DNA of 64,000 nt from Candidatus Thorarchaeota archaeon (GCA_046482545.1 JAWOEX010000035.1:173629-237628); one strand, 5' to 3'. Positions 2,602 to 62,572 are shown, counted from the stretch's first letter. Notes: generated from the sequence alone by a model not told the origin. Numbers and translations: made by a program.

Positions 2602-3711
2602 ATGTCATATTTTAGAACTGATTCGCGGATAATCCTAGCATTGGTAGCTGTGCTACTTCTATCGACAGCACTCCATATTCCGGTAGAAGCTCAGACGGAA
2701 AACCTTGATCCTGTTGTCGTTATGTATGATGAGAGTCATTCGCAGCAGTTCTCTGCTGATGACGAGGAGGATGGAATCAAGCTAATGCTCGATATGGTAA
2801 ACGACTCGAGCAGGTATCTTGTGAAGACCAACAGTGAAAACCCCCTCAATTTGACCACGCTTAGTGATGTAGATATCTTAATACTTGCCGATCCTGATGC
2901 TTCTGCTCCTTTTGAGAAGGAGGAGATTGCTGGAATATCTGATATGCTCTCTAATGGCAGCTCTCTTCTTACTCTAGGAGATCCCAAAATTGACCAAAAT
3001 TCTACCTACTGGAAGGAAACTGCCTTCAGAGATATAGGTGAGAATGATGCATTGAACAGACTCTTTTCTTCTATCAATATGACCGGGGTGAGATTCAGTG
3101 TTAACGAAACCACATCCGGTGTGATACGGGCAGATTCTCTTTTTGATTATGAGCATGCATTGAATGAAACATCTCCCCAACTAATAGAGCTGGATGCTAC
3201 AACTTGGAATTCAGACCATCCTATTTTCAATGATATAAACCGCTTGGTTACAATGACTGCGACACTCAAACCAATTGATGCGCCAAGTGCTATAGCTACT
3301 GGTTATGAAACGTCATTTGCACAGTATCGCAGGGGTCCGAACACATTTGGTAACACCTCATTTCCAAATATGACTCTCTCCGAATTTGAGGAGAAGCCGT
3401 TCTCCTATTCCGCAATAAACGGAACATTCCCGCCATGGTTATCCGCCTTTGAATTCAATAGCAGTAGAGTTGTAATCGGTGGATCGACGATAATGTTCTC
3501 TGGACGAGTACTTGATTTGCATGAGAGTGACGACAGGTCAAGCGAACAATGGTTTTACCAAGCAGATAATTCTCGACTCTTCATGAACATGCTAAACTGG
3601 CTATCGGAGGATTTTGTTACTGCTCCTGAAGCAATATACCCTCTCCTAGTAATCTCTTCAGTCATATTGCTGGTTGGGGTGGCGTTCTACGTTTTCAAGA
3701 AGCTTCGGTAA
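2602..3711 (+). CDS. Type I membrane glycoprotein with GIFT (GldG/IFT52/WBP1-like) domain
   Basis: Signal peptide; YDESH; SRVVIGGSTIMFS...DNSRLFMNMLNWL; C-terminal TM followed by KKLR; 11 N-x-S/T sequons. Confidence 0.55.
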   Translation: MSYFRTDSRIILALVAVLLLSTALHIPVEAQTENLDPVVVMYDESHSQQFSADDEEDGIKLMLDMVNDSSRYLVKTNSENPLNLTTLSDVDILILADPDASAPFEKEEIAGISDMLSNGSSLLTLGDPKIDQNSTYWKETAFRDIGENDALNRLFSSINMTGVRFSVNETTSGVIRADSLFDYEHALNETSPQLIELDATTWNSDHPIFNDINRLVTMTATLKPIDAPSAIATGYETSFAQYRRGPNTFGNTSFPNMTLSEFEEKPFSYSAINGTFPPWLSAFEFNSSRVVIGGSTIMFSGRVLDLHESDDRSSEQWFYQADNSRLFMNMLNWLSEDFVTAPEAIYPLLVISSVILLVGVAFYVFKKLR

Positions 3712-3717
3712 GGTAGT

Positions 3718-4311
3718 CTACGGCCAATCTGGACTCCTCACTCCTGATTGAACAAGTGTCTGCTCCACAGTGTGTTTCAACCGTCCAATGTTCTTGTCTT
3801 CTTTAGCAGAAATCGGTACGATAATCGGCTCTTGGTTGGGCATATACTCAAGCAACCTCCTCCTAAGATAGTCTAGCTCGACCCATCTTTCCGTCTTCTT
3901 GAGCTTGTCCATTTTGTTTGCGGTAACAATTACGTTTGATGCTATTTCTGAGAGAAAAGTGTAGAATTCAACATCAATGGGGATTTCACCACGGGAACTC
4001 CACCGCTCATACAATTCCCTGAAGAGCGATATATCAACAATTAGAATAGCAAGAATAATATCATCGCTCCATCTCTCCAGTTTTCTGATGATTGAGGTTT
4101 TCGTCTGATCTATACGCTTCTTACTCATTCCAGACATAAAACCGAATCCAGGGATGTCGACCATCAGAACTGAACCCATGTCTATCTTGATTTCTTTCTT
4201 AGTACTCCCGGGCTTCTTTCCAACTGTTACTTTCTTGCCTGTCAAATGCCTTATGACACTGCTTTTGCCGACATTACTTCTTCCTGCGAATACAACAAGC
4301 GGTTTCGTCAT
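3718..4311 (-). CDS. engB: GTP-binding protein EngB/YihA family
   Basis: GRSNVGKSS, DIPGFG, NKMD, ISAK. Confidence 0.85.
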   Translation of the reverse strand: MTKPLVVFAGRSNVGKSSVIRHLTGKKVTVGKKPGSTKKEIKIDMGSVLMVDIPGFGFMSGMSKKRIDQTKTSIIRKLERWSDDIILAILIVDISLFRELYERWSSRGEIPIDVEFYTFLSEIASNVIVTANKMDKLKKTERWVELDYLRRRLLEYMPNQEPIIVPISAKEDKNIGRLKHTVEQTLVQSGVRSPDWP

Positions 4312-4319
4312 AATCATCC

Positions 4320-7178
4320 CTACCAAAACTGGCGTGTTCTTGCGTACTGCCTTTCAGCCTTTGCGATTTCTCGCAGTAATGATATTCTATCCATTGTACT
4401 AGGCCTCAAAATTCTTGCCGCAGTAGTTGGGCCAATCCCTCGTCCCGCTAGAGTAAGCAGAGCTTTTCTTCCATAATTGGCAACCAGAGTTGCAGCCAGA
4501 TTTGCCTTCTCTAGGATTCTTTCGTCTTCACTTGTTAACTCTTGCCCACGGTGAGCTTTCTCCAAAGCCTTCTCCAATCGACTAGAAGATGATCTTCCAA
4601 TTGCAATCATCTTCGACTCACAGGTCGGGCATCTGATTGTTGATTCGAGTGTTGAGATTGTTCTTATTGTATGCCATGTGCAATTAGTACAAACTAGCTT
4701 CACTTTCTTGGATTCCAGACGGTGCTGCATCACATTCAAGATTTCTCGCTCTTCTGTAACCTCTCCAATGACTTCAAACCGCGTACGCGTTTCAACAATG
4801 AGATTGGCAAGACTAGATGGCTTCTCTCTCTCAAGGCACATAACCTCTATGAATCCATCCTGAACCTGTTCGAATATCCTTACTGTCCTTTTCTCATCCA
4901 GCTTGTCCTGCAAGACTTCTGCAACCGCGGCGGCAAAGACTGGTGTACTTTCCATGCTCTCCATAAGGCGATTTACAGGCAGGGAAGTAATCTGCACATC
5001 GCGGCGAATAACCCCCATTCTTCTCGCAACATGGATGAATCTTGATTCAAGCGTTCGAGTCTTCTTGAGTGCCATCTCTAGAATAGCAGACACTTGCTCA
5101 GGCGTGTACTCTTTAAATACATCTGTAACTAACTCTCCATCGATTTTTTCATCTGCTGTCAGTAACACTCGATATGGATCACTTTCGGCTGCTATATCTC
5201 CGCCAACTCTTGTACCAAGTAATGCGGAAAGAAGTATCGCAAGCGCATCATTTGTTTTGGTCCCGAATGGAGCGTGAAGGACAAGCCCTCCTGGAAAGCT
5301 CTCGACGATGAGCCGTTTTGTTTCAGGGAGTTGACCCAGCTCATTCTTCGCCTGTTCTATTTCCTTGATTACATACTCTACTGCCCTATCTTCAAGCCCA
5401 TAGGACGATTTAAGCCAGTTACGAGCATCCCTCTCCTCTCTACTTACTATATCATTCATGACGCTTGATACTTCAGATGCTACCTCATATGGTACCGGAA
5501 TATTCTCACCAATCCAATGTGGGGCCTCAAATTGGCGGCCTCCAGCTGGTGCACAGATGATTTCTTCGTCTTCGACACTTATTATCTCCCAAGGCTTACC
5601 ACGAATGACAAAAACATGACCCGGCTCAAGGCTGCTAACGTAGTTTTCATCCAATACTCCCACTGGTGCTCTTGTTGCTGCATCAACGACCACAGACTGC
5701 TGAACATCAGGTATTGTTGAGAGGTGGGTATAATAGAACGTGAGCACTTTCCACCCACGAGATACTGAAGTATCATTCAAGCTGATGTAGCCCTTATTCT
5801 CCATGAAACGGAGCAGCTCTAGAAGTTGCTTCCTTTCCACGCTTTTGAATGCATAGGAACGCCTGACGAATTTCAATAAATCTTGGACTGAAACCTCTTC
5901 TCTATCGAGCAATATTCCACATATCTGATGACACAATACATCCCACGCATGGCTTGGAGTCTTTGCTTCTTCAACTCTGTTGAGTTTGGCCCGCCGAAAG
6001 ATAACACCAGCTTCCAAAACGTCATCGATATTCACTGTAGCAATGATTATGCCTTTCGCAATCCCTTCAAGAGTGTGCCCGGATCTTCCTATTCTCTGTA
6101 AGCCTCTGGACACCTGCCGGGGACTAGAATACTGCACTACTAAATCTGCTTCTCCTATATCAATGCCTAATTCCAAACTGGAAGTTGCAATGATACCCTT
6201 GGAAGCACCCTCTTTCAGCCTCTGTTCTGCTTCTATTCTGGCCTCTTTAGATAGAGACCCATGATGTACATCAAATTCAAAGTTCGGTTCAAGGACTCTC
6301 ATCTTCGAGCCAAGAACTTCTGTGAACGATCTTGTATTAGTAAAAACGAGCGTCGACTTGTGGTTATCAATTAGGTCAATTATTCGCCGAAGGCGTGCCA
6401 TCGAGTGTGGTGGGTAGTATATCTTTCTTCCAAGCTCATGATCCTTAGACGTTGGAGTGGGCATTTCAACATTCAAATTCATTCTTCTGGCCCTATATCC
6501 CGCCCAAACTATTGTTGCCTTACTGACCTCTGTCTCAAGCAGACCAGCAACTTCTTTGGGATTTCCCACTGTGGCGGATAAACCGATTCGCTGTACATTA
6601 GAATTGGTAATCGAATCTAGTCTCCCAAGCCCCAAGCTCAGCTGAACCCCCCGCTTTGTACCTGCAAGTTCATGAACTTCATCAATAACAACGGCAAAAA
6701 CCGTTTGCAGGTGATATCTAAGACGTCTCCCGGGTAGGATTGCCTGCAGTGTTTCAGGTGTAGTTATTAACAGATTGGGTGGCTTGATTGCTTGTTTTCT
6801 TCTTTGGTATTGGGTAGTATCACCGTGTCGTACATCGACAGTAATTCCAAGCTTCTCGCATAATTCTTCGATTCGGCGAAACACATCTCTATTTAACGCT
6901 CGAAGGGGCGTAATGTAGAGAACATAGAAACCAAACAATTCTTTGTCTAGACTTCTTTCATACAGTATATTCAACAACGGCAAGAGCGCAGCCTCAGTCT
7001 TACCACTACCTGTTGGTGACAACAAGAGAGCATTCTTCCCGCTCAATATCGTTGGTATGGCATCTTCCTGAATTGGTGTAGGTTCCTCTATGCCCTGTTC
7101 CTGCAACAGTTGAGTGAGCTCTCCCGATAGAGAGTCGAAGGCATTCATGGAGAAGGCTTCCGTGTTTTCAAACCTCAC
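4320..7178 (-). CDS. lhr: Lhr-like SF2 helicase
   Basis: PTGSGKT, TPLRALNRD, DEVH, SAT, HHGSLS, LELGIDIG, QRIGRSGH; C-terminal Zn ribbon and HhH. Confidence 0.9.
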   Translation of the reverse strand: MRFENTEAFSMNAFDSLSGELTQLLQEQGIEEPTPIQEDAIPTILSGKNALLLSPTGSGKTEAALLPLLNILYERSLDKELFGFYVLYITPLRALNRDVFRRIEELCEKLGITVDVRHGDTTQYQRRKQAIKPPNLLITTPETLQAILPGRRLRYHLQTVFAVVIDEVHELAGTKRGVQLSLGLGRLDSITNSNVQRIGLSATVGNPKEVAGLLETEVSKATIVWAGYRARRMNLNVEMPTPTSKDHELGRKIYYPPHSMARLRRIIDLIDNHKSTLVFTNTRSFTEVLGSKMRVLEPNFEFDVHHGSLSKEARIEAEQRLKEGASKGIIATSSLELGIDIGEADLVVQYSSPRQVSRGLQRIGRSGHTLEGIAKGIIIATVNIDDVLEAGVIFRRAKLNRVEEAKTPSHAWDVLCHQICGILLDREEVSVQDLLKFVRRSYAFKSVERKQLLELLRFMENKGYISLNDTSVSRGWKVLTFYYTHLSTIPDVQQSVVVDAATRAPVGVLDENYVSSLEPGHVFVIRGKPWEIISVEDEEIICAPAGGRQFEAPHWIGENIPVPYEVASEVSSVMNDIVSREERDARNWLKSSYGLEDRAVEYVIKEIEQAKNELGQLPETKRLIVESFPGGLVLHAPFGTKTNDALAILLSALLGTRVGGDIAAESDPYRVLLTADEKIDGELVTDVFKEYTPEQVSAILEMALKKTRTLESRFIHVARRMGVIRRDVQITSLPVNRLMESMESTPVFAAAVAEVLQDKLDEKRTVRIFEQVQDGFIEVMCLEREKPSSLANLIVETRTRFEVIGEVTEEREILNVMQHRLESKKVKLVCTNCTWHTIRTISTLESTIRCPTCESKMIAIGRSSSSRLEKALEKAHRGQELTSEDERILEKANLAATLVANYGRKALLTLAGRGIGPTTAARILRPSTMDRISLLREIAKAERQYARTRQFW

Positions 7179-7366
7179 AGTTTATTTATTAGAATGCGTA
7201 TATCAGTTGAAAACGTTAGGTCTGCCATTTCCTTGTTAGCAATAAGAAACCCAATGGCTTCAGATACTGAATCTGCCTCTTGAATTGTCTTCTCTACCAG
7301 ATGTCTCATCTCGCTCAGATGTGAGATATACGATGCAGCCAACTCAAAATATTCTTTATCCGACAA
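7175..7366 (-). CDS. Small hypothetical protein
   Basis: 63-aa ORF whose stop overlaps the lhr GTG start (GTGA). Confidence 0.5.
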   Translation of the reverse strand: MSDKEYFELAASYISHLSEMRHLVEKTIQEADSVSEAIGFLIANKEMADLTFSTDIRILINKL

Positions 7367-7385
7367 AATCAGTCTCTCTCTGAGC

Positions 7386-7487
7386 CTACTCTTCCTGCTC
7401 CTCTCCGTAGACAGAATAGGCTAGAATGATCAGCAATGCAGCTATGGCCATTGCATTTAGCACGATTCCTATCAATTCAGTTTGCAT
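7386..7487 (-). CDS. 33-aa single-TM microprotein, OST4-like
   Basis: Hand translation MQTELIGIVLNAMAIAALLIILAYSVYGEEQEE; GAGGT upstream; N...Y spacing matches OST4. Confidence 0.55.
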   Translation of the reverse strand: MQTELIGIVLNAMAIAALLIILAYSVYGEEQEE

Positions 7488-7573
7488 AATACTCAAGTTA
7501 CCTCGCTAAAATTCTACTTATAATCGTTCCTCAAGTCCATCCATAAAAAAGAAATGGCCATTACTATGTTCAT

Positions 7574-7795
7574 TTATTCATAGTACTGGTCGATGAACTC
7601 TCCATAGATATCTACTGCTTCAGTCAGTGGGTTCACTTCATCAATTATCATCTTTAAACCGCAGGAGCCACACTTGACACTTGCTATCTCCTCCTCCCTA
7701 AACACATCAATCTTGATGGCGGTCTTTCCGCATGAAGGACAGGGATAGACGGAGGGAAGTCTTCTGCGTGACCGACTACTGGATCTTCTACCCAT
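7574..7795 (-). CDS. elf1: Transcription elongation factor Elf1
   Basis: MGRR basic N-terminus, CPSC...CGSC, EAVDIYGEFID. Confidence 0.9.
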   Translation of the reverse strand: MGRRSSSRSRRRLPSVYPCPSCGKTAIKIDVFREEEIASVKCGSCGLKMIIDEVNPLTEAVDIYGEFIDQYYE

Positions 7796-7958
7796 TGCTA
7801 TTCACCTCTAATTCCCCTAGAACATGATAAGATAGGCTCTGAGAGAAGTCGAGCATATTGACCCTCAAAAGCGAGAATTTAAGGATTTTGTTAAAGGGTT
7901 TTACTCTGAGAGTTCTCCCTGATGAAAGCTTTAATATCGAAGTCTCAGCCGCATATCT

Positions 7959-8195
7959 TTGATGACTGATTTATCTCCGAACGAAAAATGTGTGCTGCAG
8001 ATTCTTGAGCATGAGGGTCCACTAACTACTGCAGATCTCATCAAGGCATCTCGTTCCAGTGAGTACTCTCATTTATGTACTGGTTGTGCAGGCGGAGACG
8101 CAATCCTCTCAGCAGCCCAGAGTCTTCTTCATAGTGGTTCTATCTCACGAGAACTTGGGAAGGACGGCTATTGCTGGCATTTGAAGGTTGAATGA
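7959..8195 (+). CDS. Small winged-HTH protein with CxxC
   Basis: LSPNEKCVLQILEHEGPLTTADL wHTH start; CTGC; ATGA overlap with sufS. Confidence 0.55.
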   Translation: MMTDLSPNEKCVLQILEHEGPLTTADLIKASRSSEYSHLCTGCAGGDAILSAAQSLLHSGSISRELGKDGYCWHLKVE

Positions 8196-15042: not shown

Positions 15043-15049
15043 GGAGTGT

Positions 15050-20173: not shown

Positions 20174-20530
20174 GTGGACCACATGGACACTCAGAGTATT
20201 GATGATTTAGACGTTGAGACAACAACAGGATTGTTGAGATTGCGAGTTATGTATCTTGAAAATGGTCTTATCGTTTTATTGTCCGATTCAAGCAACTTCA
20301 AATTGGGAAATACTGCAGTTAGCATACCGGAAGGTACTGGCAGGAATGAACCTACTTCTACAACGCTCTTTTCAAATGCTCTTGATTCGACCTTGGCAAG
20401 GACACTAGCTGAGCGTGTTTCAAGCTGGACTAATCAGGCATGTATCTTAGTTGTATCCGCAAAGGATTTGAATAGAGATTCTACGATGGAAGTCATGAAG
20501 GTGTTGAAACAACATCTCCAGCAAGAATAG
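20174..20530 (+). CDS. Proteasome assembly chaperone PAC4/PAC3-like protein
   Basis: LGNTAVSIP...PTSTTLF...LARTLAERVSSWTNQACIL pattern resembles PSMG4. Confidence 0.6.
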   Translation: MDHMDTQSIDDLDVETTTGLLRLRVMYLENGLIVLLSDSSNFKLGNTAVSIPEGTGRNEPTSTTLFSNALDSTLARTLAERVSSWTNQACILVVSAKDLNRDSTMEVMKVLKQHLQQE

Positions 20531-22978: not shown

Positions 22979-23404
22979 TTGTTGAAGCCTTGGTGGCCTA
23001 AGATTATTGTCAAACCGAGATTGAGACTTGGAAGGCCGCGATTTGGGATGCCCAGTCGACCGCCCGACATCGTAATCTTCGGTGTAGTTTTCCTTGGCCT
23101 TCTCTTCATTCTTGGTGGGAATATCTACACACTTGTAAAAAACCCTCCCGCCATCGCTGGTGGTCAAGATAATCAGCCTATCTTGGTTGCACCGGGCACT
23201 AATCAGCAGCTAGGTATGGAAGGAATCGTAGCATCTTTCGTCATATTCATGGGCACTGTGGGATTGGGACTCATCTACTATGCATCGAAGTATGTATTCA
23301 ATCCCGGATACGCAACCCGATTACTTGTACTTGGAAGTATTCTTGCTGGCCTCGCATTCCTAATATTCGCCTATCTATATGGTGTTAAAACGGGTCAATT
23401 TTAA
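22979..23404 (+). CDS. Oligosaccharyltransferase subunit OSTC/DC2 (OST3/OST6 family) homolog
   Basis: KPRLRL...GGNIYTLVKNPP...QLGMEGIVASF; 3 TMs; matches the OSTC pattern GGIIYDVIVEPP...QYIMEGLASSF. Confidence 0.75.
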   Translation: MLKPWWPKIIVKPRLRLGRPRFGMPSRPPDIVIFGVVFLGLLFILGGNIYTLVKNPPAIAGGQDNQPILVAPGTNQQLGMEGIVASFVIFMGTVGLGLIYYASKYVFNPGYATRLLVLGSILAGLAFLIFAYLYGVKTGQF

Positions 23405-26996: not shown

Positions 26997-29774
26997 ATGT
27001 CACGATTTAGTAGATTCAAACGGTCTGCTGAGAGATTCTTTGGGAAAGCTTTCCATAAGCCTAGGGCAGAAATTAACCGTGGCTCAGTTATGTTGATTGC
27101 TTCTTTGGCCCTCATTTTCTTTGCTGCACTAGGAGTACGTTTGGCGCCTCTCATTGATGCTCAGCCTTTGGTTCGCGCTTTCGATCCTTGGTTCCAACTT
27201 CGGGTGACTGAATATATTACCGATCAGGGATTTGGAGCTTTCTTCAGCTGGTATGATGAATCAACATGGGTTCCATACGGTCGTAACATGACTGAGACAA
27301 GCTACATCGGTGTTCCATTTACTAGTGCTTTCTTCTATATGCTGATGAATAACTTGGGACTTAGTATCAGTATCAAATATGTTTCACTGATTATGCCTGC
27401 TTTTATGGGCGCGCTCACTACAATTGTCGCCTTTTTCCTTGGAAAAGAAATTTCGAATAATACCGTTGGTCTACTTAGTTCATTATTCATGGCTTTCATG
27501 CCCGCATTTATTCAGAGAACTGTTGCAGGTTTCTATGACAACGAATGTATTGGTGTATTTGCTATTGTCTTAGGTCTCTATTTCTTTACTAGGTCTATTA
27601 GGAGAGACTCTCTATCTTCAGGTGTACTCGCTGGTCTTTCTTTGGCCTATTTACGAGCATCTTGGGGGGCAGGAGATTTTCTATTAGTCCTATTTGCCTT
27701 GTATGCCTTTACAATGCTGCTCTTTGGAAGGTATAGTAAAAGGCTCCTTTCCTCCTATGTAATCACCATCTCTTTGGGGCTTTTTGTGAGTGGTCTTGTA
27801 CCTAGAATTGGATTTGGTAACCTCACTTCCTTTTCTCTCCTTGTTCCCATTGGTGTAGCATTTCTACTTGTTGGATACGAAATATGGCTAAGAATTGGGG
27901 CCTATCGGAGAGCAACAGCTGAGCTTCTTGCCCCTCACATGCGTTCGATTGGGTTGGGTCTGCTCACTTCAGTTGTCGCTGTAGCAAGCTACTTCATCTA
28001 CGCAGGGGAGAGAGCTCTAACAATTACTCCATACAACACGAACCCTGTCATTAGACTCGGTGGCAAATTCATTACAGCCATTAATCCCTTCTATCGTTTA
28101 GATGAACGGATTTTCGCGTCCGTTGCTGAACATCTTCCTAGCCCCTGGAGTAGTTTCTATCAGACCCTTTCTGTCCTAATTTTCTTCTTTCCATTGGGAA
28201 TGTATTTTGCTTTCAAAAGAGGGAAAGACGAGGATTGGCTTATCCTCCTGTATGGGCTTGCTTCAGTGTATTTTGCAGGAAGTATGATTCGCCTTTCACT
28301 GATCCTTGCGCCGGGTGTTGCGGTACTTTCTGCAATTGCAATCAACAGAGTACTTTCTCCCTTCGCTAGAATCGTAACTGAAAAGACAGTTTTCGAGAGA
28401 CGCCGGTTTAGGATGAGCAAGTCGCTCACATCTGAACATGCTCTCGCCGCTTATGCATTTGTTGGGCTTCTCCTCGGTGTCAATTTGATTCTCGGTGTGC
28501 AATATGCGACTAACCAAATCCAAAATCCTGAGTTTGCGCGTTCGCCATTGTCTGAGGAAAATCAACAGACCGACTGGCAAACTGCGATGACATACGTGAG
28601 GAATGTACTACCAGATGATGCAATTGTTGCAAGCTGGTGGGACTATGGCTATTGGTTGAATGGAGCAGGAGGCACGCAGACCATCGTTGATAATGCGACA
28701 TGGAACAGCACACAAATTGCAAAAATGGGATATGCATTGATGGCACTTAATCTGACAGAGTCACTACGCACATTCAAAGCTTGGAATGCCTCCCATGTAG
28801 TGGTTAACTGGGGTCACGGTATTCAGGGTTTAGGTGGAGATGAAGGAAAGTGGCCATGGATGGTCAGGATTGCTGAAGACAAGCTTGGCACCGCCGTCAT
28901 AGATGATGAGACCTATCTGGGTGATGATCCTTCAACCCCAGATACTGAAGAAAGCGAAGCTACGCTTGAGCCATTCTATTCTTCAACACTATTCAAGCTG
29001 CTTAGCTACGGCGAACCCGCGTCTGCTCAAGCTGCTCAGCAACAAGCTCAGCAAGGGACCTTGCCCCAAGGACGTGCGAGCATCGATGCAAGCGATGGAT
29101 CCTACGCCAATGATGAAAAGTGGACTTCTCATATGCCAGTGAATCTGCATGGTGCATTCAAACCTCCGTATTACAGTTCACCATATGGTATTGTCAAGAT
29201 ATACGAGATCGACTATACGATGTACTACCAGTGGCTCAACCGTAGCAATGCTGACTGGGTGCTAGACAAGAATACGCTCTCTGGAGTATCCATGGATGGG
29301 AGTCTTTCTGGTGCTGAAGAGGGCTTTAGCAAGTTCGATATTGTATTCGGTGGTGGATACAATGCATCAGTGTATTCCGCTGCAAATTCAACCCATGTGT
29401 ACTATGGCATCAAAATGAACAACTATACAAATACGGAGGACGCAATCGGGTTCCAAATTGCTCCGGTTGATAATCCTGGAGAGGCTGATATCCGGGTAGC
29501 AAACTTCAGTGGTCAAGAATACTATGATGGAAATGTAGGCTATAATGGAGAATGGGCAGAAGACTCCAGCGGTAGTAACTCAACCGAACTCGCTGGTGGA
29601 GCCAATTTCACCGAGTTCCTACTCCCATTGGATAGCGGAGACTCACAGGATACAATCATGTCTCCTGGAATGAACTACCAAATCCGTTTCATGTTCTGGA
29701 ACAACATCCGGAGCGGCGAACCAACATTTACTTCCGATTGGAAGAGCTTCTGGGTTCCAATTGAACTCTACTAG
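26997..29774 (+). CDS. aglB: Oligosaccharyltransferase STT3/AglB with extra C-terminal beta-rich domain
   Basis: FDPWF, FYDNE, SVAEH, SWWDYG, DNATWN, DEGKWPWMVRI. Confidence 0.95.
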   Translation: MSRFSRFKRSAERFFGKAFHKPRAEINRGSVMLIASLALIFFAALGVRLAPLIDAQPLVRAFDPWFQLRVTEYITDQGFGAFFSWYDESTWVPYGRNMTETSYIGVPFTSAFFYMLMNNLGLSISIKYVSLIMPAFMGALTTIVAFFLGKEISNNTVGLLSSLFMAFMPAFIQRTVAGFYDNECIGVFAIVLGLYFFTRSIRRDSLSSGVLAGLSLAYLRASWGAGDFLLVLFALYAFTMLLFGRYSKRLLSSYVITISLGLFVSGLVPRIGFGNLTSFSLLVPIGVAFLLVGYEIWLRIGAYRRATAELLAPHMRSIGLGLLTSVVAVASYFIYAGERALTITPYNTNPVIRLGGKFITAINPFYRLDERIFASVAEHLPSPWSSFYQTLSVLIFFFPLGMYFAFKRGKDEDWLILLYGLASVYFAGSMIRLSLILAPGVAVLSAIAINRVLSPFARIVTEKTVFERRRFRMSKSLTSEHALAAYAFVGLLLGVNLILGVQYATNQIQNPEFARSPLSEENQQTDWQTAMTYVRNVLPDDAIVASWWDYGYWLNGAGGTQTIVDNATWNSTQIAKMGYALMALNLTESLRTFKAWNASHVVVNWGHGIQGLGGDEGKWPWMVRIAEDKLGTAVIDDETYLGDDPSTPDTEESEATLEPFYSSTLFKLLSYGEPASAQAAQQQAQQGTLPQGRASIDASDGSYANDEKWTSHMPVNLHGAFKPPYYSSPYGIVKIYEIDYTMYYQWLNRSNADWVLDKNTLSGVSMDGSLSGAEEGFSKFDIVFGGGYNASVYSAANSTHVYYGIKMNNYTNTEDAIGFQIAPVDNPGEADIRVANFSGQEYYDGNVGYNGEWAEDSSGSNSTELAGGANFTEFLLPLDSGDSQDTIMSPGMNYQIRFMFWNNIRSGEPTFTSDWKSFWVPIELY

Positions 29775-34219: not shown

Positions 34220-35752
34220 TCACTCTTTGTATCTGTGCAGCTTTATCACGTACTTGTTCCTGCCCATATCATCGTTCCTAGAATACTCGATACTACTGCG
34301 ATATCTTTCTAGCAGAAGTCGCACGCTGAATAGATTAAGATTGAGGGTTGTAATCTCGGGGACATCAGTGCTCAGCAGTTGGTCAAGTTCAGAATCCGTA
34401 GGTCTGGATCCGTCCGTCACAATTTGGACCTCGACTTGGTTGTCTACAGACGTGGTATCGACAGAGATGAGTATCTCCCCGTCTCGTGAGAGTATCTCGT
34501 TGACGAATAGGTTGGTGAGCAGGATGTCCAGTTTGTTGTCAGCCAGCACCAGCAGACTATCATCAATCTCACTGATTTCGAATCTGAACTTGGCTCCCTT
34601 GAGCATCTGTTCCACAGTCTGTTGAGCTCTCTCTATTGCGGTCTTGAGCTTATAGGGGACAAGCTTCTTTTCACCAATGGACTTTATCTCTGAGAGGGTT
34701 GCCACCTGCCTGTTGAAGAAGGTTGACTCCTTGCTCAGTTTCATTGCTGTCTCGATGGCTCGCTTGTAAGCGTCGTCCACTGGTTCTTCGAGGGTTAAGA
34801 TTTCCAAGCATGAAACAATTCCCTGAAGGAGGTTTCCCATCTTGTGCACCCACATTGAGAGGTAAAGGTCACTCTCTTTCCGGGCGGTCTCAAGTTCCTT
34901 TGTCCTCCTCTCAACAAGGGACTCAAGACCGCGGTGTGGCTCAATAATGGCAGTGAATATCATCGCAATGCTCAGGATGATGAACCCCGCTATCACTCCA
35001 CCAATCCATAAGAACTCGGCTACTTGATAGGGGTCTTCAAGGAGGCTATAGACAACGAAAGTGTATAGCCAGAAAACCAGAGCTAGTGTTGAACCCAGCA
35101 CTATCCTATCGCGAGCATTGAACCATTCCTTAGTATATCGTACCAAGGACAGTACTGCAGTGCTACCTACCACGATTGTCAGTAACCATCCAACAGGTGT
35201 GAGTCCTGCCAGGCCACCAGTTGGATCAGTCACCTTGAAGAGGGGATCTTTAGTCAGTATTAACGATATTGAGAACAAGGGCTGAAGTACCAAACCCCAG
35301 AGTATGACAAAGCTCCTGTTCCTCGTTGTCAGTTCTTTTCCACCAAAGACCGACCCCGCAAGCACACCAGGCGTGAGTAGGAACCCAAGAGCTGTGACTA
35401 CTGTCCTGTTGCGATCACGGCCTGCAAGTGGTGAGCCCAGAGCGCTAGGATGAGTTACCAAAAACAAGAACGAGAATACGACAACATTTGCCCCCAGAAA
35501 CATGATTATCAGGCTTCTTAGGTTTGGCAACTGAGCATAGTGAACAAGCGAGTAGATGAAGACGACACCCGCGGACATGGCCAAGAAAGCCATTAAGAAC
35601 GCAATCCTGAAGAAGGCTCTCTCATCAGAAACACTATTCCACGCAGCGCCTGTCACGAGGAAAGAACATAGGATGGAGAACATGACAATGAACAGCACCA
35701 AGAGCATGTAGTCGTAGTACTTACTCTTCACCGTGGCACTCAAAGATGTCAC
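34220..35752 (-). CDS. Multi-TM sensor histidine kinase-like protein with degenerate HATPase
   Basis: About 8 TMs, coiled coil LVERRTKEL, H-box WVHKMGNLLQ; G-boxes lost. Confidence 0.65.
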   Translation of the reverse strand: MTSLSATVKSKYYDYMLLVLFIVMFSILCSFLVTGAAWNSVSDERAFFRIAFLMAFLAMSAGVVFIYSLVHYAQLPNLRSLIIMFLGANVVVFSFLFLVTHPSALGSPLAGRDRNRTVVTALGFLLTPGVLAGSVFGGKELTTRNRSFVILWGLVLQPLFSISLILTKDPLFKVTDPTGGLAGLTPVGWLLTIVVGSTAVLSLVRYTKEWFNARDRIVLGSTLALVFWLYTFVVYSLLEDPYQVAEFLWIGGVIAGFIILSIAMIFTAIIEPHRGLESLVERRTKELETARKESDLYLSMWVHKMGNLLQGIVSCLEILTLEEPVDDAYKRAIETAMKLSKESTFFNRQVATLSEIKSIGEKKLVPYKLKTAIERAQQTVEQMLKGAKFRFEISEIDDSLLVLADNKLDILLTNLFVNEILSRDGEILISVDTTSVDNQVEVQIVTDGSRPTDSELDQLLSTDVPEITTLNLNLFSVRLLLERYRSSIEYSRNDDMGRNKYVIKLHRYKE

Positions 35753-50559: not shown

Positions 50560-50562
50560 CCC

Positions 50563-51240: not shown

Positions 51241-51295
51241 TCCAATCAGGATGTATTAGCTTTATTCATAAAAAGGGTTATCGAAATATGGATAC

Positions 51296-54282: not shown

Positions 54283-54328
54283 GAGATAACCATATAGAAA
54301 AAGCGTTATGAGGGTTTTATTAAGAAAA

Positions 54329-55002: not shown

Positions 55003-55150
55003 GACAGTATTTCTGTTCCGAAGAGTATCAACTTAAACAAGCCTAGAGTGGAAAGTGGTTCTACTGGTCAAAGAAAAGCTTCCCGGTTATCGGTAGTCAT
55101 AGCATACGACACAATCTTAATAACCGTGCTAGTTTGTCACACCTCGACAA

Positions 55151-55228
55151 GCCCCGGTAGTGTAGCCCGGCCCAGCATCTAGGGTTTTCGACCCTATGAC
55201 CCGGGTTCAAATCCCGGCCGGGGCACCA
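55151..55228 (+). tRNA. tRNA-Glu(TTC), intronless
   Basis: GCCCCGG...TAGGG-TTTTCGA-CCCTA...TTCAAAT...CCGGGGC-A-CCA. Confidence 0.95.
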
Positions 55229-55234
55229 ATACTT

Positions 55235-56735: not shown

Positions 56736-56779
56736 TTCGAACCTCTCACTTCAATCGATATACGTCCTCAGTTATTTGT

Positions 56780-58099
56780 TTAATGTTCCACTACTCTACG
56801 TACCGGTACAACACCGGCTGTTCCCGGTCCCACTTCAAAATTTCCATATCGATATACCAGGATTCCACCAACAAAGGTCATTACGGGCCGTGCTAGCACT
56901 TCTTGTCCTTCGAACGGTGTGATATTAGCTTTGGAATGAAATGTATCCCCTCTAATCTCATACTGATCTTCCTGCACTACTACTATATCTGCATCATAGT
57001 CCTTGCAGAGGATACCCTTCCTAGGTATATTCAGTATTCTCGCAGGCCCTGAACAGCAACATCTTAGATATTCTACCCAGTGCATTTCTCCCCTGAAAAC
57101 CCGTGTTAGCATGAGTGGTACCGTCGTTTCCAAACCCGGGAAGCCAGAAGGTGCGTCTAGGAATGAAGCACATTTTTCGTTCTCGGTATGTGGTGCATGG
57201 TCAGAAGCTACACAATCAATTACACAACGCGATAGAGATTGATTCAAAACATTCTTGTCATAAGGTGATCTAAGCGGAGGCATAACCTTCGCTCTTCCAT
57301 CTTCGTTTGTAAATTGATCTCCTGTTAGAAACAAGTGATGCGGTGTGACTTCGGCTGTCAGTATATTCTCTGCGCGGTGTTTCTTGATTAAATTCGCGGC
57401 AGATGCACAACTGACATGACATACATGCATCCTACTTTCTGTTTCTTGAAGAGCTTGAATGAACGCAACTATAGCCCTTTTCTCTGCTTCACAACTGTGT
57501 ATCTTGAAAAAATCTTGAACTGTTTTGGCCTTTGCACTTGGATTTGATAAATCGGGATGAAAGAGAAGTGGAAGATGGTTCCTTTTCGCAAGATTCAGAC
57601 ATGCTCCAATTCTTTCTTTGGTGTATCTGACGTCTTCATGAAGTGGGCTGTGCGGATATACCTTTAATCCCATAATCTTATTGAAGAATCTTTCATCCAG
57701 TGCATCAGGACTCTGTGGAATACCTCCATAGAATCCAATATTGACAAATCTATTTCTTTTCGCTTGTTCTATTTTACGCTCTAGAACTTGAAGTGATAAA
57801 ACTGGAGGCTGAGTGTTTGGCATATCCACTACTGTAGTTACACCTCCAGCAGCAGCGGCCATGGTTCCCGAGCGATAAACCTCCTTTTTTGACTGCTTTA
57901 AATCTCTGAGATGGGTGTGAATATCAACCATGCCTGGCAGAATATACAATCCTGTACAATCGATATCGATCTCTGCAGTAGGTTCTTGCCCGATTCTGTA
58001 AATCCCTTCTATCTTTCCCTTATCTACAACCACAGATCTTCTGCATAGTTCTCCGTTTTGGCAGATTTTACCTCCGCGAAGAATCAACTCTGCAGCCAT
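56780..58099 (-). CDS. pyrC: Dihydroorotase-family amidohydrolase
   Basis: DIHTHLR, GGVTTVVDMPNT, EVTPHHL, SDHAPH. Confidence 0.8.
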   Translation of the reverse strand: MAAELILRGGKICQNGELCRRSVVVDKGKIEGIYRIGQEPTAEIDIDCTGLYILPGMVDIHTHLRDLKQSKKEVYRSGTMAAAAGGVTTVVDMPNTQPPVLSLQVLERKIEQAKRNRFVNIGFYGGIPQSPDALDERFFNKIMGLKVYPHSPLHEDVRYTKERIGACLNLAKRNHLPLLFHPDLSNPSAKAKTVQDFFKIHSCEAEKRAIVAFIQALQETESRMHVCHVSCASAANLIKKHRAENILTAEVTPHHLFLTGDQFTNEDGRAKVMPPLRSPYDKNVLNQSLSRCVIDCVASDHAPHTENEKCASFLDAPSGFPGLETTVPLMLTRVFRGEMHWVEYLRCCCSGPARILNIPRKGILCKDYDADIVVVQEDQYEIRGDTFHSKANITPFEGQEVLARPVMTFVGGILVYRYGNFEVGPGTAGVVPVRRVVEH

Positions 58100-58229
58100 A
58101 TATCTAGCACTCCACAGTCCCTGAATACAGCCCTGCTATTTGACGTCTTCGTTCATAACCCCTTTCTTACAGTTGGGTTCACTCACTCAACTATAAGAAA
58201 CGGGTTATCGAGAGTGTTACGAGATTGAT

Positions 58230-58448
58230 GTGGTGGCTGCTTTAGGATATATAGAGAATGAGGATGACGTATTGAACGAGCAGATTTCTGAAGTGGTACG
58301 AGAACATCGAAGGCTACATGGTTTCCCTCAGAATCCCACTGGGAGGATAATTGAGATTATAGAAGTGCAATGGCAACTATTCTGTGAAAAAGAAGCCCTC
58401 GACTTGCCTCATGAACACCAGTTTGCTTCCACGTCGGATTTAGCATGA
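58230..58448 (+). CDS. Small hypothetical protein
   Basis: 72-aa ORF filling an intergenic gap; no motif. Confidence 0.3.
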   Translation: MVAALGYIENEDDVLNEQISEVVREHRRLHGFPQNPTGRIIEIIEVQWQLFCEKEALDLPHEHQFASTSDLA

Positions 58449-58503
58449 AATCTTACACCTTCTTATCCACATTTTCTAGGATTTTTGCAAGACTTGGTCT
58501 CTC

Positions 58504-58670
58504 TGGAAGTTATTTGCCACGAAACATATGAAGTCGGTCGGGCTGATTATGCCTACAAGCCTCTCATTTTCGTTTTCTTTCAACTGCTAGACTCAGGCAC
58601 TTGGAAATTATTGGCTACGAAACGCGTGAAGTCAGTTGCGCTTATTATGCCTACAAGCTTTTCGTTTTTA
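58504..58670. repeat. Diverged tandem duplication (~69 bp, offset 98) of the CBS gene 3' end
   Basis: TGGAAGTTATTTGCCACGAAAC...ATTATGCCTACAAGC (58504) versus TGGAAATTATTGGCTACGAAAC...ATTATGCCTACAAGC (58602). Confidence 0.8.
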
Positions 58671-59398
58671 TCTACCACGGGCAGCGTATTCAGCTTGGCA
58701 TCAAGCATCTTGGTGGACGCCTCGGCAATAGAGGTTTCAGTATTGACAAGTGGAGGCTGCTGCAGCATAGCATCAACTACTCGTATTTGTCTGACTTGAT
58801 TAGATCTGTACTTGCCAGGTACTTTGGCAGTGAATCTTGCCATCGCCTCTGCAACAAGTTTCTCAGTAAGTAAACCTACAACTGTTCCACCATCAGTAAC
58901 AGGAAGGCCAGAGAAGCCTGCTGTTAGCATGTCCAACCTTGCCTTTACGAGACGGTCAACTGGGCTGGCTACCAATAGGTCTTCCCCTGTCATCAACTCT
59001 CCTACCTTCACATTCTCAAATTTTTGGACGAGTTGAGATAGTTCAATCTTGGTAATCACACCGACTATATTGTCATCCTCATCAATTACCGGACATCCGC
59101 TCATCCCCCTCTCTAGCATTAGGCTTGCAACATCTGTTATATCATCTTTTGGCGAGACAGTAATTACTGAGATACTCATTGCGCTTGACACATGAAGTCT
59201 ACCGATAGAAACAGCTACAACCTTGCTAACGTCTAGTCTGTCTGCAATATCGGCATATGTTAGTATACCTGTCAGCTCCTTGTCTTGCGTAACAATTAGC
59301 CTATCTACACCCTTCTTCTCGAGTAAGTCAAGCGCATGAGATAATCTCTGATCTTTATCAATTGTTTCCGGTTCTACCATAATTTGGCTTACTTCCAA
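58580..59398 (-). CDS. CBS domain protein (4 CBS)
   Basis: Repeated CBS motifs. Confidence 0.88.
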   Translation of the reverse strand: MEVSQIMVEPETIDKDQRLSHALDLLEKKGVDRLIVTQDKELTGILTYADIADRLDVSKVVAVSIGRLHVSSAMSISVITVSPKDDITDVASLMLERGMSGCPVIDEDDNIVGVITKIELSQLVQKFENVKVGELMTGEDLLVASPVDRLVKARLDMLTAGFSGLPVTDGGTVVGLLTEKLVAEAMARFTAKVPGKYRSNQVRQIRVVDAMLQQPPLVNTETSIAEASTKMLDAKLNTLPVVDKNEKLVGIISATDFTRFVANNFQVPESSS

Positions 59399-59461
59399 AA
59401 CATAGACCTCCTAATGTATTTAATCTGTGACCGGGGTGAACCGGTCTTCTGATTATGCTAA

Positions 59462-60025
59462 TTACCTCCTACAGTTTTCGCAGATATACTGTCCATCTAC
59501 AAGGGCCAATTCTGTCGAGTACTCGCCACATGCATCACAGGTTCCGCCATACGCGATAAGGTGGTCCTCCTCTTGTTCACCAGAAATGTGCTCCCCCTCT
59601 TTGATTTTCAGTGATTCTATCAAGATATCGATGAGTTCCGGTGACCATCGCAGAATATCTCTTGATGTAACAATACCCACTAAGGAATGGTTCTTCAGCA
59701 CTGCTAATCGACGGATTCTGCTTTCTGCCATAATCCTCATCGCCTTGGTGAGCGCGGTTTGTGGTTCTACATGTATTATTGGTGAAGACATTATTTCTCT
59801 GGCTCGCGTCGCATGGACATCACGTTCTTTCGCCACGACTCTTCTTACAATATCCGCTTCAGTAATCAATCCTATTGCGCGTTCTTTATCCACAATAATA
59901 ATGGAGCCTATATCCATTCGACTCATAGATTTGGCTACTTCTAGGACAGTAGCATCTGGAGAAATACTAACGACGTCCATAGTCATAATATCCCGAATAG
60001 CCATCGATTGCGACGGATCAGCCAT
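59462..60025 (-). CDS. CBS pair + C-terminal Zn ribbon protein
   Basis: CBS pair; GTCDACG...ICENC. Confidence 0.88.
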   Translation of the reverse strand: MADPSQSMAIRDIMTMDVVSISPDATVLEVAKSMSRMDIGSIIIVDKERAIGLITEADIVRRVVAKERDVHATRAREIMSSPIIHVEPQTALTKAMRIMAESRIRRLAVLKNHSLVGIVTSRDILRWSPELIDILIESLKIKEGEHISGEQEEDHLIAYGGTCDACGEYSTELALVDGQYICENCRR

Positions 60026-60139
60026 CTCAATTCCTCAATTAATTCGGCACTTGGGTACCGTTCGAGCTCAAGGTTTTGTTTTCGCTTTAAATGTGTTTAT
60101 TATCGTGAAATAGAACGAAGGTCATACCTTCTGAACAGC

Positions 60140-62137
60140 CTATTCAATAATATGCCCTTCTCCTGGCGGAAGAACTCTCATTATCTCCTGTTCTGGTGTT
60201 CTGCTTACGATTCTTGCTTGACCTTCTGGTAGCATTTCTTCGAAGCGATGAAGAATGGATTTTACTAGATCACTCTTCTTGCGTCTACCAGGGCCTACTT
60301 TAATATTGTACTTCGTATGAGCCTCTACTGCTGTGTAGGGACCTGACATGGGCACAGCATGTTCTCCTTCAAAGAGCAATCCTACGGCCAATTCGATGCC
60401 GATATTTTCTATATAGTTCTTTGAACCGTATATCATTACTGCACCTGATGGAAGATACTCTCCAGAGGGAGGGGTGAAACTCACTTGACTTGGCTCCACC
60501 CAATAGGCATCCGCACTCACAAGGTTTTCCTGCCAAGCTTTTGAGAATGTGATTGAGAATTTCCCAGCTTCTTTGAGGGTCATTTCTCCTGGTTGTTCAT
60601 CTGGGACCTTTACGATGACGTAGGGAGCACCATGCACTGCAGCGTGTATGAAGATGTCATTTGGGCCTAAGTGTTTCTTAGCCAGTTCTTCATTTGTTTT
60701 GGCATCTCTTCCGCCTAAGACTAGATGACCTTCAGATGATTTGAACCAGCGGTATTTTTCATACCACTGTTTGCGTCTGATTTTTACTGGCTTCTTCTCT
60801 TCAACAGGTTCAATCTGGTTCTCATCAAGGCTTTGGAGCCCTTTTTTGGTCTTTTCTATTTGCTCTCTTGCACCTTTCATCTTCCCTTCAATCTTTTTCG
60901 CCTTATTGTACAATTTTGAGGCATTCTGTTGGATGCTTTTTTGCATATCTAACTTGGCTCTTTTGTTGTCTATTTCTATGATGATCTCCCCTTTTGCAGG
61001 TCGTATCTCAGTAATCATCTTAGCTGATGGAATGTCACTCTTCTTTCCCTCCTCTATTCGTTCCTGAATTTTGTTCCAAGGAACACCATCAGACCTTGCT
61101 TGCTCAATAGTATGCAGTATTTCTGCTATTTCCTGAAAATTCGCGTACATTGCCTCACCAGTTTCTCGCAGTAGAATGGCTTCGTCTGCTAGCTCATCCA
61201 GGTTCTCTTCCTGTTTCTCGATAATAGTTTGCAGTCTTTCTCTCTCTTCTTTCAGAGCTTCCTCTTTCTTGTCTATCTCTTTCTCTATCTCGGGGAATCC
61301 AAAGAATTCGTCAATGGCCTGACTATACGATTCAAATATCTCCTGTGGCATGTCAACATACATCTGAAATCTGAATGGGACGAAAGAAATGTATTCACCG
61401 TCTTTGTCGAGAATTATCCTTGGTTCATTTGCCCCCTCTTCTATTTTTTTGAGGTATTTCCTGAACCCACGAAGCAAGTCCGAGATTTGCTTGTTTGTCA
61501 TGTTCTCAACTGATTCGGTTGGGGAAATTCCTGCTAAGGCACATACTTCTTCACAACTCAAGGAATCTACATTGAATCCACGTGTCAATGTTCGTATCAG
61601 ACTGGCATTGGAATTTTGTATCACACCTTCCAGATTTTCTAGCTCCACCGCCAGTATATCCCGCCCCCTCTGCGGGGGAAACTGGTAAACTGCATTGGGA
61701 ATGACATTACGATCTCTCATCTTCTTGTAATGGAGAGCAATGAATATCTCGTCATCAGGGTCCACGAGTATAACATTACCTTTGCCAAACAGCTCAACAA
61801 TAAGCTTGTAGCTGTTTTCTTCTCCTCCCACTTCGAAAATCACTATTCTGTCCAAATCATATTGTTCGATGTTTGTAATTACGCGATTCCTGAGGTATTT
61901 TCGAAGCACCATGCAAAATTCGGGAGGAAACCGGGGAGCATCTCTGCGATACCTTGTAAGATGTAGTCTACAGCCCGGTTCAATGAGAATCTGTCGGGTT
62001 CCTACGGATGATTTGTGCACTTTCAGAACAAAGGTGCCATTATACTGATAGACATTGTTTATGAAGGCACCATGGGCCACTTCTCTTATCTCGGGAAGGA
62101 TTGCCCGAATGTCTGTGTTACTCATCGACTCCTTCAT
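60140..62137 (-). CDS. rqcH: Ribosome quality control protein RqcH/NEMF (NFACT)
   Basis: MSNTDI, DRIV, ELFGKGN, WYEKYRWF, GGRDA..NE, GEYL..G. Confidence 0.92.
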   Translation of the reverse strand: MKESMSNTDIRAILPEIREVAHGAFINNVYQYNGTFVLKVHKSSVGTRQILIEPGCRLHLTRYRRDAPRFPPEFCMVLRKYLRNRVITNIEQYDLDRIVIFEVGGEENSYKLIVELFGKGNVILVDPDDEIFIALHYKKMRDRNVIPNAVYQFPPQRGRDILAVELENLEGVIQNSNASLIRTLTRGFNVDSLSCEEVCALAGISPTESVENMTNKQISDLLRGFRKYLKKIEEGANEPRIILDKDGEYISFVPFRFQMYVDMPQEIFESYSQAIDEFFGFPEIEKEIDKKEEALKEERERLQTIIEKQEENLDELADEAILLRETGEAMYANFQEIAEILHTIEQARSDGVPWNKIQERIEEGKKSDIPSAKMITEIRPAKGEIIIEIDNKRAKLDMQKSIQQNASKLYNKAKKIEGKMKGAREQIEKTKKGLQSLDENQIEPVEEKKPVKIRRKQWYEKYRWFKSSEGHLVLGGRDAKTNEELAKKHLGPNDIFIHAAVHGAPYVIVKVPDEQPGEMTLKEAGKFSITFSKAWQENLVSADAYWVEPSQVSFTPPSGEYLPSGAVMIYGSKNYIENIGIELAVGLLFEGEHAVPMSGPYTAVEAHTKYNIKVGPGRRKKSDLVKSILHRFEEMLPEGQARIVSRTPEQEIMRVLPPGEGHIIE

Positions 62138-62209
62138 TATATATAGTCATCAGACCGAGGCTTTTATAACACAGTCGATTACCGATTCACATCAGACAGG
62201 TGATTCCAA

Positions 62210-62572
62210 ATGGACCCCCTTAGCTCAGTCTTTCACGTTCTCTTTGGCAGATGGAAGGACGACCCAAAAGACTTGAATTATTACATCAAAATCTTCTTTG
62301 CCTGTATTAGTGCGGTAGTCTGCGGTATTGCTGGACCTGCTTTTGCAGGAACGAGAGGGATTGTTTTCGGCCTACTGATTTACATCATCAGCCTATATGT
62401 ACTGGTCTACATCATGGACATGGATCCAGAAGCACTTGGCAGTTACCAGAAACTGGTGACAGATTCCCTGCCCAGTTACCTATTATTATGGGTACTTCTG
62501 TGGACTCTCATCTATGCCTTCACATTGCCATCGTCAGTAGTTGAAAATTTGGCTTTCGCTCTTAGTATGTGA
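62210..62572 (+). CDS. EMC6/OPTI (Rab5ip)-like 3-TM membrane protein
   Basis: YYIKIFFACISAVVCG...MDPEALGSYQKLVTDSLPSYLLLWVLLWTLIY. Confidence 0.65.
   Translation: MDPLSSVFHVLFGRWKDDPKDLNYYIKIFFACISAVVCGIAGPAFAGTRGIVFGLLIYIISLYVLVYIMDMDPEALGSYQKLVTDSLPSYLLLWVLLWTLIYAFTLPSSVVENLAFALSM

Follow-up and report, generated by a model that had tools for sequence, protein, structure and literature searches.

Genes for eukaryote-like oligosaccharyltransferase and translocon proteins in a conserved chromosomal block of a Candidatus Thorarchaeota archaeon

In eukaryotes, an oligosaccharyltransferase (OST) of eight subunits is docked on the Sec61 translocon, whereas most prokaryotes have a one-subunit enzyme. 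The present analysis concerns a 64-kb stretch of DNA (64,000 nucleotides (nt); 173629-237628 of contig C28, JAWOEX010000035.1), in the following called the window, from the genome of a Candidatus Thorarchaeota archaeon (GCA_046482545.1; 3.05 Mb in 45 contigs, 98.9% complete), and the OST- and translocon-related proteins that it encodes. The GC content of the window is flat (0.43-0.47). Its proteins have their best database relatives under the labels Candidatus Thorarchaeota or Promethearchaeia, which places the genome among the Asgard archaea. A first-pass annotation had pointed out six open reading frames (ORFs), all of which lie where it had placed them. Its identification of four of them (STT3, an OSTC/DC2-like protein, Sec61beta and an EMC6/OPTI-like protein) was upheld by homology tests; the naming of a fifth as WBP1 was not, nor was that of the sixth as OST4 by sequence. 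The six genes are given below with their positions in the window (aa, amino acids; TM, transmembrane). In comparisons with other Asgard archaea, f1 to f21 are family labels and G014 is a genome label of our comparison set.

2602-3711, plus strand: GIFT-domain type I membrane protein, 369 aa, a glycoprotein candidate with GIFT fold, not accepted as WBP1
7386-7487, minus strand: 33-aa Ost4-like microprotein with one TM helix and an acidic tail at the C-terminus, unannotated ORF
22979-23404, plus strand: OSTC/DC2-like protein, 141 aa, three TM helices, recognised by Pfam OST3_OST6 and by a phmmer match to OSTC
26997-29774, plus strand: STT3/AglB catalytic oligosaccharyltransferase, 925 aa, PF02516
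31658-31846, minus strand: Sec61beta/SecG (archaeal), 62 aa, tail-anchored, PF03911
62210-62572, plus strand: EMC6/OPTI-like protein, 120 aa, three TM helices, PF07019

The STT3/AglB protein matched PF02516 with an E value of 5e-54 (184.7 bits, cut-off 24.5) and is encoded by a single gene in this 98.9%-complete genome. It features a WWDYG motif at position 547, a DK-type motif (DEGKWPWM) at 615, SVAEH at approximately 375-379 (including E378), FYDNE at approximately 179-183 and FDPW (including D63), and these five motifs are invariant across 27 STT3 orthologs. Judged by its motifs, the enzyme is of the eukaryotic type. Beyond the point at which such proteins usually end (…KIYEI), the polypeptide carries a further stretch of approximately 185 aa (window 29200-29774), and seven sequons are found in this C-terminal extension. 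All Thorarchaeal orthologs, which have 878-927 aa, conserve the extension, and it is thus typical of the family.

The OSTC/DC2-like protein combines a conserved basic and proline-rich N-terminus with three TM helices and is devoid of a thioredoxin domain. Pfam OST3_OST6 covered the C-terminal TM part only (35.4 bits), and a single-sequence phmmer search of the PDB returned human and canine OSTC as the sole matches (E 1.6e-6; residues 11-128 against 13-133 of 149). When a profile of 36 Asgard sequences was compared with the PDB, human OSTC was aligned over the full length (E 3.4e-22; 10-141 against 10-144 of 149) and MAGT1 (E 1.4e-7) in its TM part alone; yeast Ost3 and Ost6 gave no match to the profile in the PDB at E values up to 10. 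The AlphaFold2 (AF2) model of the protein (predicted local distance difference test, pLDDT, 83) had its best structural match in human OSTC (Z 9.9, root-mean-square deviation (rmsd) 2.6, 95 residues aligned); MAGT1 tied with it (Z 9.4), and Ost3 and Ost6 scored lower. A search of 1.8 billion representative proteins yielded 111 relatives, almost all of which have 85-205 aa. Within the phylum the gene is present in 186 of 201 genomes, among them 84 of the 85 of good quality. A stretch of the form WWP...KPR.RL.RP.F is conserved upstream of an internal methionine, and the TTG start of the gene is thus correct. By architecture and sequence similarity this protein, which is the published Asgard "OST3/6-like" eukaryotic signature protein, is DC2/OSTC-like. 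In four families the OSTC-like gene has that of CarS as its immediate convergent neighbour.

The unannotated ORF of the 33-aa microprotein starts with an ATG at 7487 and is located between elf1 and a 63-aa ORF; a TATA-like TTATAA and a GAGGT precede it by approximately 35 and 10 nt, respectively. In a protein search, 44 of the family's 46 genomes each had exactly one copy, and with a profile 17 of 17 genomes of the family were positive. At 30 loci the ORF retains the MQ start and the stop, stays within 33-41 aa and shows the pattern G..AL....Y..YG, after which an acidic tail follows. The microprotein is a real, conserved gene in its Thorarchaeal family, and one that is too short for routine annotation.

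Multimer modelling, a check that the first-pass annotation had proposed for the whole set, was performed in silico for the microprotein on STT3 (residues 1-740) together with the OSTC-like chain; each protein was supplied with its alignment, and the microprotein was the only scored partner. It reached a score of 0.79, while the best of three controls (two unrelated 33-aa proteins and one swapped large chain, all at 0.00) reached 0.00. Of 80 solved complexes 58 attain this mark, and of 110 mismatched pairs 2 do so; the calibration is only rough for the present case with its own alignments and three chains. At least 92% of the contacts agreed between runs and the pLDDT of the partner was at least 77. 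The microprotein is predicted to contact STT3 at residues 28-54 (TM1), 155-167, 450-461 and 486-505 (last two TM helices). Ost4 presumably packs on TM1 and TM12/13 of Stt3. Ost4 binds Stt3 tightly, and charged substitutions at its residues 18-24 break the subcomplex (PMC7226087). The prediction supports binding of the microprotein to STT3 without demonstrating it.

Further OST components were sought in the rest of the genome with Pfam models, so that distant forms could have been missed. RPN1, the first of several partners whose search had been recommended, is represented outside the window by an OST1/ribophorin-I homolog of 983 aa (C23:69498-72449; Ribophorin_I 29.2 bits). It consists of a signal peptide, FKBP_C and Big_7 domains, a TM helix (788-807) and a cytosolic tail, of which residues 841-973 match the ribosome-binding domain of Lokiarchaeal OST1 (PDB 8WHN) with an E value of 2.9e-9. 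Binding of OST1 to the ribosome has been shown for the Lokiarchaeal protein (Carilo et al. 2024, PMC11417166). The gene is divergently paired with that of a GT4 (Alg7/AglH-type) transferase, and the pair spans C23:68296-72449. Enzymes of the Alg7/AglH type start the synthesis of the lipid-linked glycan. It is also of note that the extracellular part of the OST1 homolog holds an FKBP-type prolyl isomerase and an immunoglobulin-like domain, i.e. a folding enzyme is fused to an OST subunit. At approximately 52700-52930 of C10, a conserved 74-aa ORF with two TM helices has a sub-threshold match to Pfam Ost5/TMEM258 (18 bits; 23-24 bits in two sister genomes) and is a possible candidate for an Ost5-like subunit. 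The searches for RPN2, DAD1 and TRAP returned nothing above noise or only non-specific matches: the best genome-wide values were E 0.04 for ribophorin II, E 0.52 for DAD1 (in an antisense frame of a GT4 gene) and, for KCP2, E 0.014 in a 441-aa frame, likewise noise, and TRAP-alpha and TRAP-gamma gave only noise. The model TRAP_beta matched two proteins (548 and 839 aa), which were not retained as candidates; it also matches control genomes and was read as detecting a generic beta-sandwich. No subcomplex III (Wbp1-Swp1-Ost2) was found in the genome.

Sec61beta was identified by PF03911 (E 8e-13; 48.6 bits, cut-off 27) and has a C-terminal TM helix (34-62). Its gene precedes that of L44e by 21 nt on the same strand, with L44e and eIF2alpha downstream. 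The EMC6-like protein, which is encoded once in the genome, matched PF07019 with 30.3-30.7 bits (cut-off 23.3), a model that exceeded its cut-off in none of 14 control genomes. A profile of the family was nearer to OPTI (7tut_9, E 0.0023) than to EMC6 (E 0.26) in the PDB, and OPTI is also the nearest relative of the Lokiarchaeal EMC6-like protein (Lewis and Hegde 2021, PMC8675477). As possible partners of the Oxa1/TMCO1 type, two EMC3/TMCO1-type genes are present (C9:63083-63661 and C34:23902-24459; EMC3_TMCO1 74.8 and 72.2 bits). For M. jannaschii, binding of the EMC6-like protein to an Oxa1-superfamily partner has been predicted (Lewis and Hegde 2021, PMC8675477), and by analogy the Thorarchaeal EMC6/OPTI-like protein is likely to pair with an insertase of the EMC3/TMCO1 type (archaeal YidC-like). 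The presence of two EMC3/TMCO1-type (DUF106) paralogs for one EMC6-like gene may represent an early step toward the eukaryotic EMC3/TMCO1/GET1 split. Divergently beside the EMC6-like gene, a ribosome quality-control protein of the NFACT/Rqc2 type is encoded (665 aa, 60140-62137).

The protein that had been taken for WBP1 comprises a signal peptide, one GIFT/GATase1-like domain (approximately residues 35-339), a C-terminal TM helix and a KKxR tail (KKLR end), and it has 11 sequons. WBP1 itself has a GIFT domain (PMC7226087), and the GIFT fold and the WBP1-like membrane topology of the Thorarchaeal protein are real; orthology to WBP1 is unsupported. A genome scan with OST48_N (PF03345) gave no match at this ORF, the lone weak match (19.8 bits) being another gene on C9, and the model was found in 0 of 17 genomes of the Thorarchaeal family. 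It exceeded its cut-off in family f4, in proteins of 461 aa, and gave weaker matches in six other families. With Pfam ABC_transp_aux the protein scored 32.6 bits and narrowly missed the cut-off (34.7), and many of its orthologs also match IFT52_GIFT. A single-sequence search of the PDB had no match; the profile of the family retrieved IFT52 (E 0.0015) and OST48 was not found. Among the structural matches of the AF2 model (pLDDT 67; predicted template modelling score 0.70), IFT52 ranked highest (Z 19.7 and 19.1), followed by the fourth domain of site-1 protease (Z approximately 17), OST48/Wbp1 (Z 15.6-16.3; N-domain only, approximately 220 residues, rmsd 3.4-4.2) and generic GATase1-like proteins (Z approximately 15). 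As IFT52 scores higher and generic GATase1-like proteins come up to a Z of about 15, the fold does not single out OST48. The domain aligns to residues 40-305 of the approximately 410 residues of the OST48 chain, which corresponds to one lumenal domain as compared to the two of Wbp1. The look-alike clusters of the protein are DUF4350, ABC_transp_aux and IFT52_GIFT. Its profile found relatives of 325-440 aa in 76 of 101 Asgard genomes, and one of these genomes (G014) has both the GIFT type (381 aa) and a separate OST48_N-positive protein of 461 aa; hhalign of the GIFT type against the OST48_N-positive protein of f4 yielded a probability of 3% over 73 columns. Orthology to WBP1/OST48 was rejected in view of the missing OST48_N match, the closer relation to IFT52 and prokaryotic GIFT proteins, the single lumenal domain and the coexistence of both types in G014. 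This agrees with the report that WBP1, Swp1 and Ost2 are restricted to Heimdallarchaeia among the Asgards (Eme et al. 2023, PMC10307638).

The statement of the first-pass annotation that the genes do not form one operon was borne out: no operon of translocon genes exists in the window, and the neighbours are housekeeping genes on both strands. They code for a metallophosphoesterase, a GTPase, Lhr helicase, Elf1, a cysteine-desulfurase-like aminotransferase, RPA and PolD-DP2, furthermore for PAC4, topoisomerase I, MptE, DHPS, GcvT, GcvH, eIF2alpha, L44e, MazG and SHMT, and also for a CBS protein, NFACT and a TnpB remnant. The proteasome assembly chaperone PAC4 (118 aa, 20174-20530) was recognised with 32.8 bits by a Pfam model with a cut-off of 31. 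A 510-aa protein with at least eight TM helices (34220-35752) had no Pfam match at E values up to 1. In the ORF at 62773-63678, which looks like a truncated transposon insertion, an AsnC-type helix-turn-helix (residues 4-42) is fused to a TnpB/Cas12f-like nuclease's C-terminal TNB domain. The gene content of the region, including STT3, the eIF2alpha-L44e pair and Sec61beta, is kept in at least six other Asgard families at 30-45% protein identity; synteny of such long range is unusual for archaea.

We consider it likely that the window carries a part of the vertically inherited, published Asgard set of eukaryote-like translocon proteins, in which STT3 forms a core with small partners, the GIFT protein is not WBP1 and the location of the genes reflects synteny. 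In such a system catalysis would be the task of STT3 as the oligosaccharyltransferase of the cell membrane. The last TM helices of STT3 together with TM1 are predicted to hold the 33-aa Ost4-like helix, and the OSTC/DC2-like protein presumably binds beside STT3, as DC2 does in human OST-A. STT3, the microprotein and the OSTC-like protein would then be the equivalent of the eukaryotic OST subcomplex II. The OST1 homolog with its ribosome-binding cytosolic bundle and this core are probably located next to SecY/Sec61 with its Sec61beta subunit, where emerging chains could be glycosylated. We assume that the EMC6/OPTI-like protein works apart from this assembly, paired with one of the two EMC3/TMCO1-type insertases (compare Lewis and Hegde 2021), and that the GIFT protein belongs to the surface glycoproteins of the GldG/IFT52/DUF4350 kind. 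The multi-subunit complex of the STT3A type that had been postulated is tenable in this reduced form: because STT3, a homolog of DC2/OSTC, a microprotein predicted to dock and an OST1 tail of the ribosome-binding type are encoded, a multi-subunit, translocon-coupled OST is plausible. A full set of this type is unsupported, with no matches above noise for KCP2, DAD1 and ribophorin II, and the same holds for a joint machine that includes EMC6, which is part of a separate insertase in eukaryotes.

Co-location of the genes might be taken to reflect a functional supra-operonic cluster, or a regulon, that serves secretion and glycosylation. The naive chance of finding five pre-named genes within 55 kb of a 3.05-Mb genome is approximately 5e-7, and OSTC and STT3 are less than 20 kb apart in six families and even adjacent and divergent, at a distance of 0.45 kb, in f4. 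For a pre-named set, such a co-location exceeds chance. When nine regions from six other Asgard families (f3, f4, f5, f12, f15 and f21) were compared by BLAST with all proteins of the window, genes for RPA, PolD-DP2, Lhr, Elf1, CarS, DHPS and GcvT/H were found to recur beside those of OSTC, STT3 and GIFT, and the same applied to eIF2alpha, an S27e-like protein, L44e, MazG, SHMT and two unnamed ORFs. It is the synteny of the entire chromosomal block across Asgard families, in which these many unrelated housekeeping genes are equally conserved, that keeps the OST parts together. For this reason the proximity of OSTC to STT3 and of the GIFT gene to OSTC was dropped as functional evidence. Moreover, OSTC and STT3 are unlinked in f7, f9, f12, f13, f16 and f19, the mixed strands and the intervening folate, glycine-cleavage and replication genes speak against co-transcription, and the EMC6 gene is 30 kb off, adjoining that of NFACT. 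A cluster or regulon of this kind appears very improbable; the window is part of a long-lived syntenic block, and the proximity of the OST genes was inherited with this block and is no evidence of joint function. If the location is set aside, STT3 could still be a single-subunit AglB as in most archaea, with small proteins that are homologous by descent and have other tasks, or none with STT3, and with a docking result that is an artefact, caused by the packing of hydrophobic helices or by resemblance to structures already solved. The characterised archaeal AglB enzymes act alone (PMC7226087), and docking passes for families with solved complexes may stem from memorised structures. The lack of a sequence link between the microprotein and Ost4 weighs in the same direction and, like its detection in one family only, against the core that we propose. 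Pfam Ost4 (PF10215) had no match in the window and nothing above noise in the genome, the profile of the microprotein retrieved no OST4 chain from the PDB at E values up to 10, and sequence homology to OST4 is not supported; for one helix such an outcome is expected, and 33 aa are too few for descent from Ost4 to be excluded in this way. The profile found the microprotein in 0 of 103 genomes of other families, and no Ost4-like mini-ORF was found when the surroundings of Elf1 were inspected in f5, f12 and f15. The docking score may in part stem from resemblance to the STT3-Ost4 complexes that have been solved, and the microprotein could be an STT3-binding helix that is analogous to Ost4 or unrelated to it. 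In addition, a glycoproteomic study on a cultured Asgard archaeon reports no clearly eukaryote-like glycobiology (PMC11284389). On the other hand, the phylum retains the OSTC-like protein in all but one of its 85 genomes of good quality, and the collinearity of this protein with human OSTC extends to the cytosolic N-terminus. To our knowledge, the sole role of OSTC is inside OST. Both unrelated 33-aa controls and the swapped large chain remained at 0.00 in the docking, and the OST1 homolog has retained the ribosome-binding domain. A single-subunit AglB is therefore judged improbable.

The opposite deviation from the reduced multi-subunit OST would be a full eukaryote-style OST, in which the GIFT protein serves as a functional pre-duplication WBP1-like subunit and handles glycans extracellularly. 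In favour of it, this protein has the topology of WBP1 (signal peptide, GIFT domain, one TM helix and short basic tail), a strong fold match to the OST48/Wbp1 N-domain (Z 15.6-16.3) and 11 sequons; furthermore, positional orthologs of the gene lie 1.4-48 kb from OSTC in f1, f5, f12 and f15, and the ortholog of f14 has a weak OST48_N match (28.7 bits). However, regional linkage is common to unrelated genes, OST48_N is found in 0 of 17 family genomes, and the protein is nearer to IFT52 by profile (E 0.0015) and structure (Z 19.7) and to DUF4350/ABC_transp_aux. It has a single lumenal domain as compared to the two of Wbp1, G014 carries the GIFT type next to a separate OST48_N type, with a probability of 3% in the hhalign comparison between the types, and Pfam models revealed neither of the partners Swp1 and Ost2. 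A full OST is accordingly regarded as unlikely. Quite unlikely, too, is the far-reaching combination in which the widespread Asgard type I GIFT protein, with positional orthologs in at least four families, would be a true archaeal OST accessory subunit, as a single-domain forerunner or sister of WBP1/OST48, and a DC2-type, translocon-docking OST would be ancestral with the thioredoxin-bearing OST3/6 as the derived form. If it were true, glycan-handling lumenal subunits would be older than Heimdallarchaeia.

Asgard archaea show which parts of OST came first. With the reduced core as the preferred reading, one more Thorarchaeal genome fits the published picture, in which subcomplex II (STT3, an Ost4-like helix and a DC2-like protein) and OST1 are present and subcomplex III is not found, and the DC2-like Asgard protein hints at a translocon-coupled OST-A as the older design. 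At the same time a false lead, WBP1 in Thorarchaeota, is removed, and gene proximity in this region is traced to general synteny and not to function. The supported content is already known from Eme 2023, Lewis and Hegde 2021 and Carilo 2024. Homologs of STT3, OST3/6 and Ost1 were reported from Asgards in 2017 and those of Ost4, Ost5, Ost2, Swp1, WBP1 and TRAP in Eme 2023 (PMC10307638); archaeal EMC6-like proteins and their likeness to OPTI are published (PMC8675477), and a superposition of AF2 models of Lokiarchaeal Sec61, OST and TRAP on the human OST-A translocon 8B6L is already available (PMC11417166). Added here are the assignment to DC2 over OST3/6, a microprotein that is conserved and unannotated, together with its controlled docking prediction, the dismissal of WBP1 and the explanation by synteny.

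In comparison to human OST-A (STT3A-OST4-DC2/OSTC; 6S7O, 8B6L) and yeast OST (Stt3-Ost4-Ost3/6; 6EZN, 6C26), the Thorarchaeal proteins share the STT3 motifs and the ribosome-binding tail of OST1, with human OST-A also a partner that has three TM helices, lacks a thioredoxin domain and gives a full-length match to OSTC, and with subcomplex II of both the 33-aa single helix that is predicted on TM1 and the last two TM helices of STT3. They differ in that there is one STT3, pre-dating the split into STT3A and STT3B, that the microprotein is without detectable sequence similarity to Ost4, and that KCP2 and subcomplex III (OST48, ribophorin II, DAD1) were not found; the putative Thorarchaeal complex would sit in the cell membrane and not in the endoplasmic reticulum. 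The GIFT protein shares its ectodomain fold with IFT52, GldG/ABC_transp_aux, DUF4350 and the N-domain of OST48/Wbp1, and with Wbp1 also the membrane topology; it differs from OST48/Wbp1 in its single domain, in its proximity to IFT52 and prokaryotic GIFT proteins and in being a separate paralog from the OST48_N-positive proteins of Asgards. Like the archaeal EMC6-like/YidC-Oxa1 pair, human OPTI-TMCO1 and EMC6-EMC3, the genome combines EMC3/TMCO1-type genes with a small, single-copy protein of three TM helices that is nearest to OPTI, although two EMC3/TMCO1-type paralogs are present for the one EMC6-like gene. [quoted passage not shown] In agreement with that set, which comprises STT3, the "OST3/6-like" protein, Ost1, Ost4 and Ost5 in most classes together with Sec61 alpha, beta and gamma, the same kinds of protein recur in the present genome, with the difference that the "OST3/6-like" protein is nearer to OSTC/DC2 than to OST3/6 (81.9 as compared to 34.5 bits).

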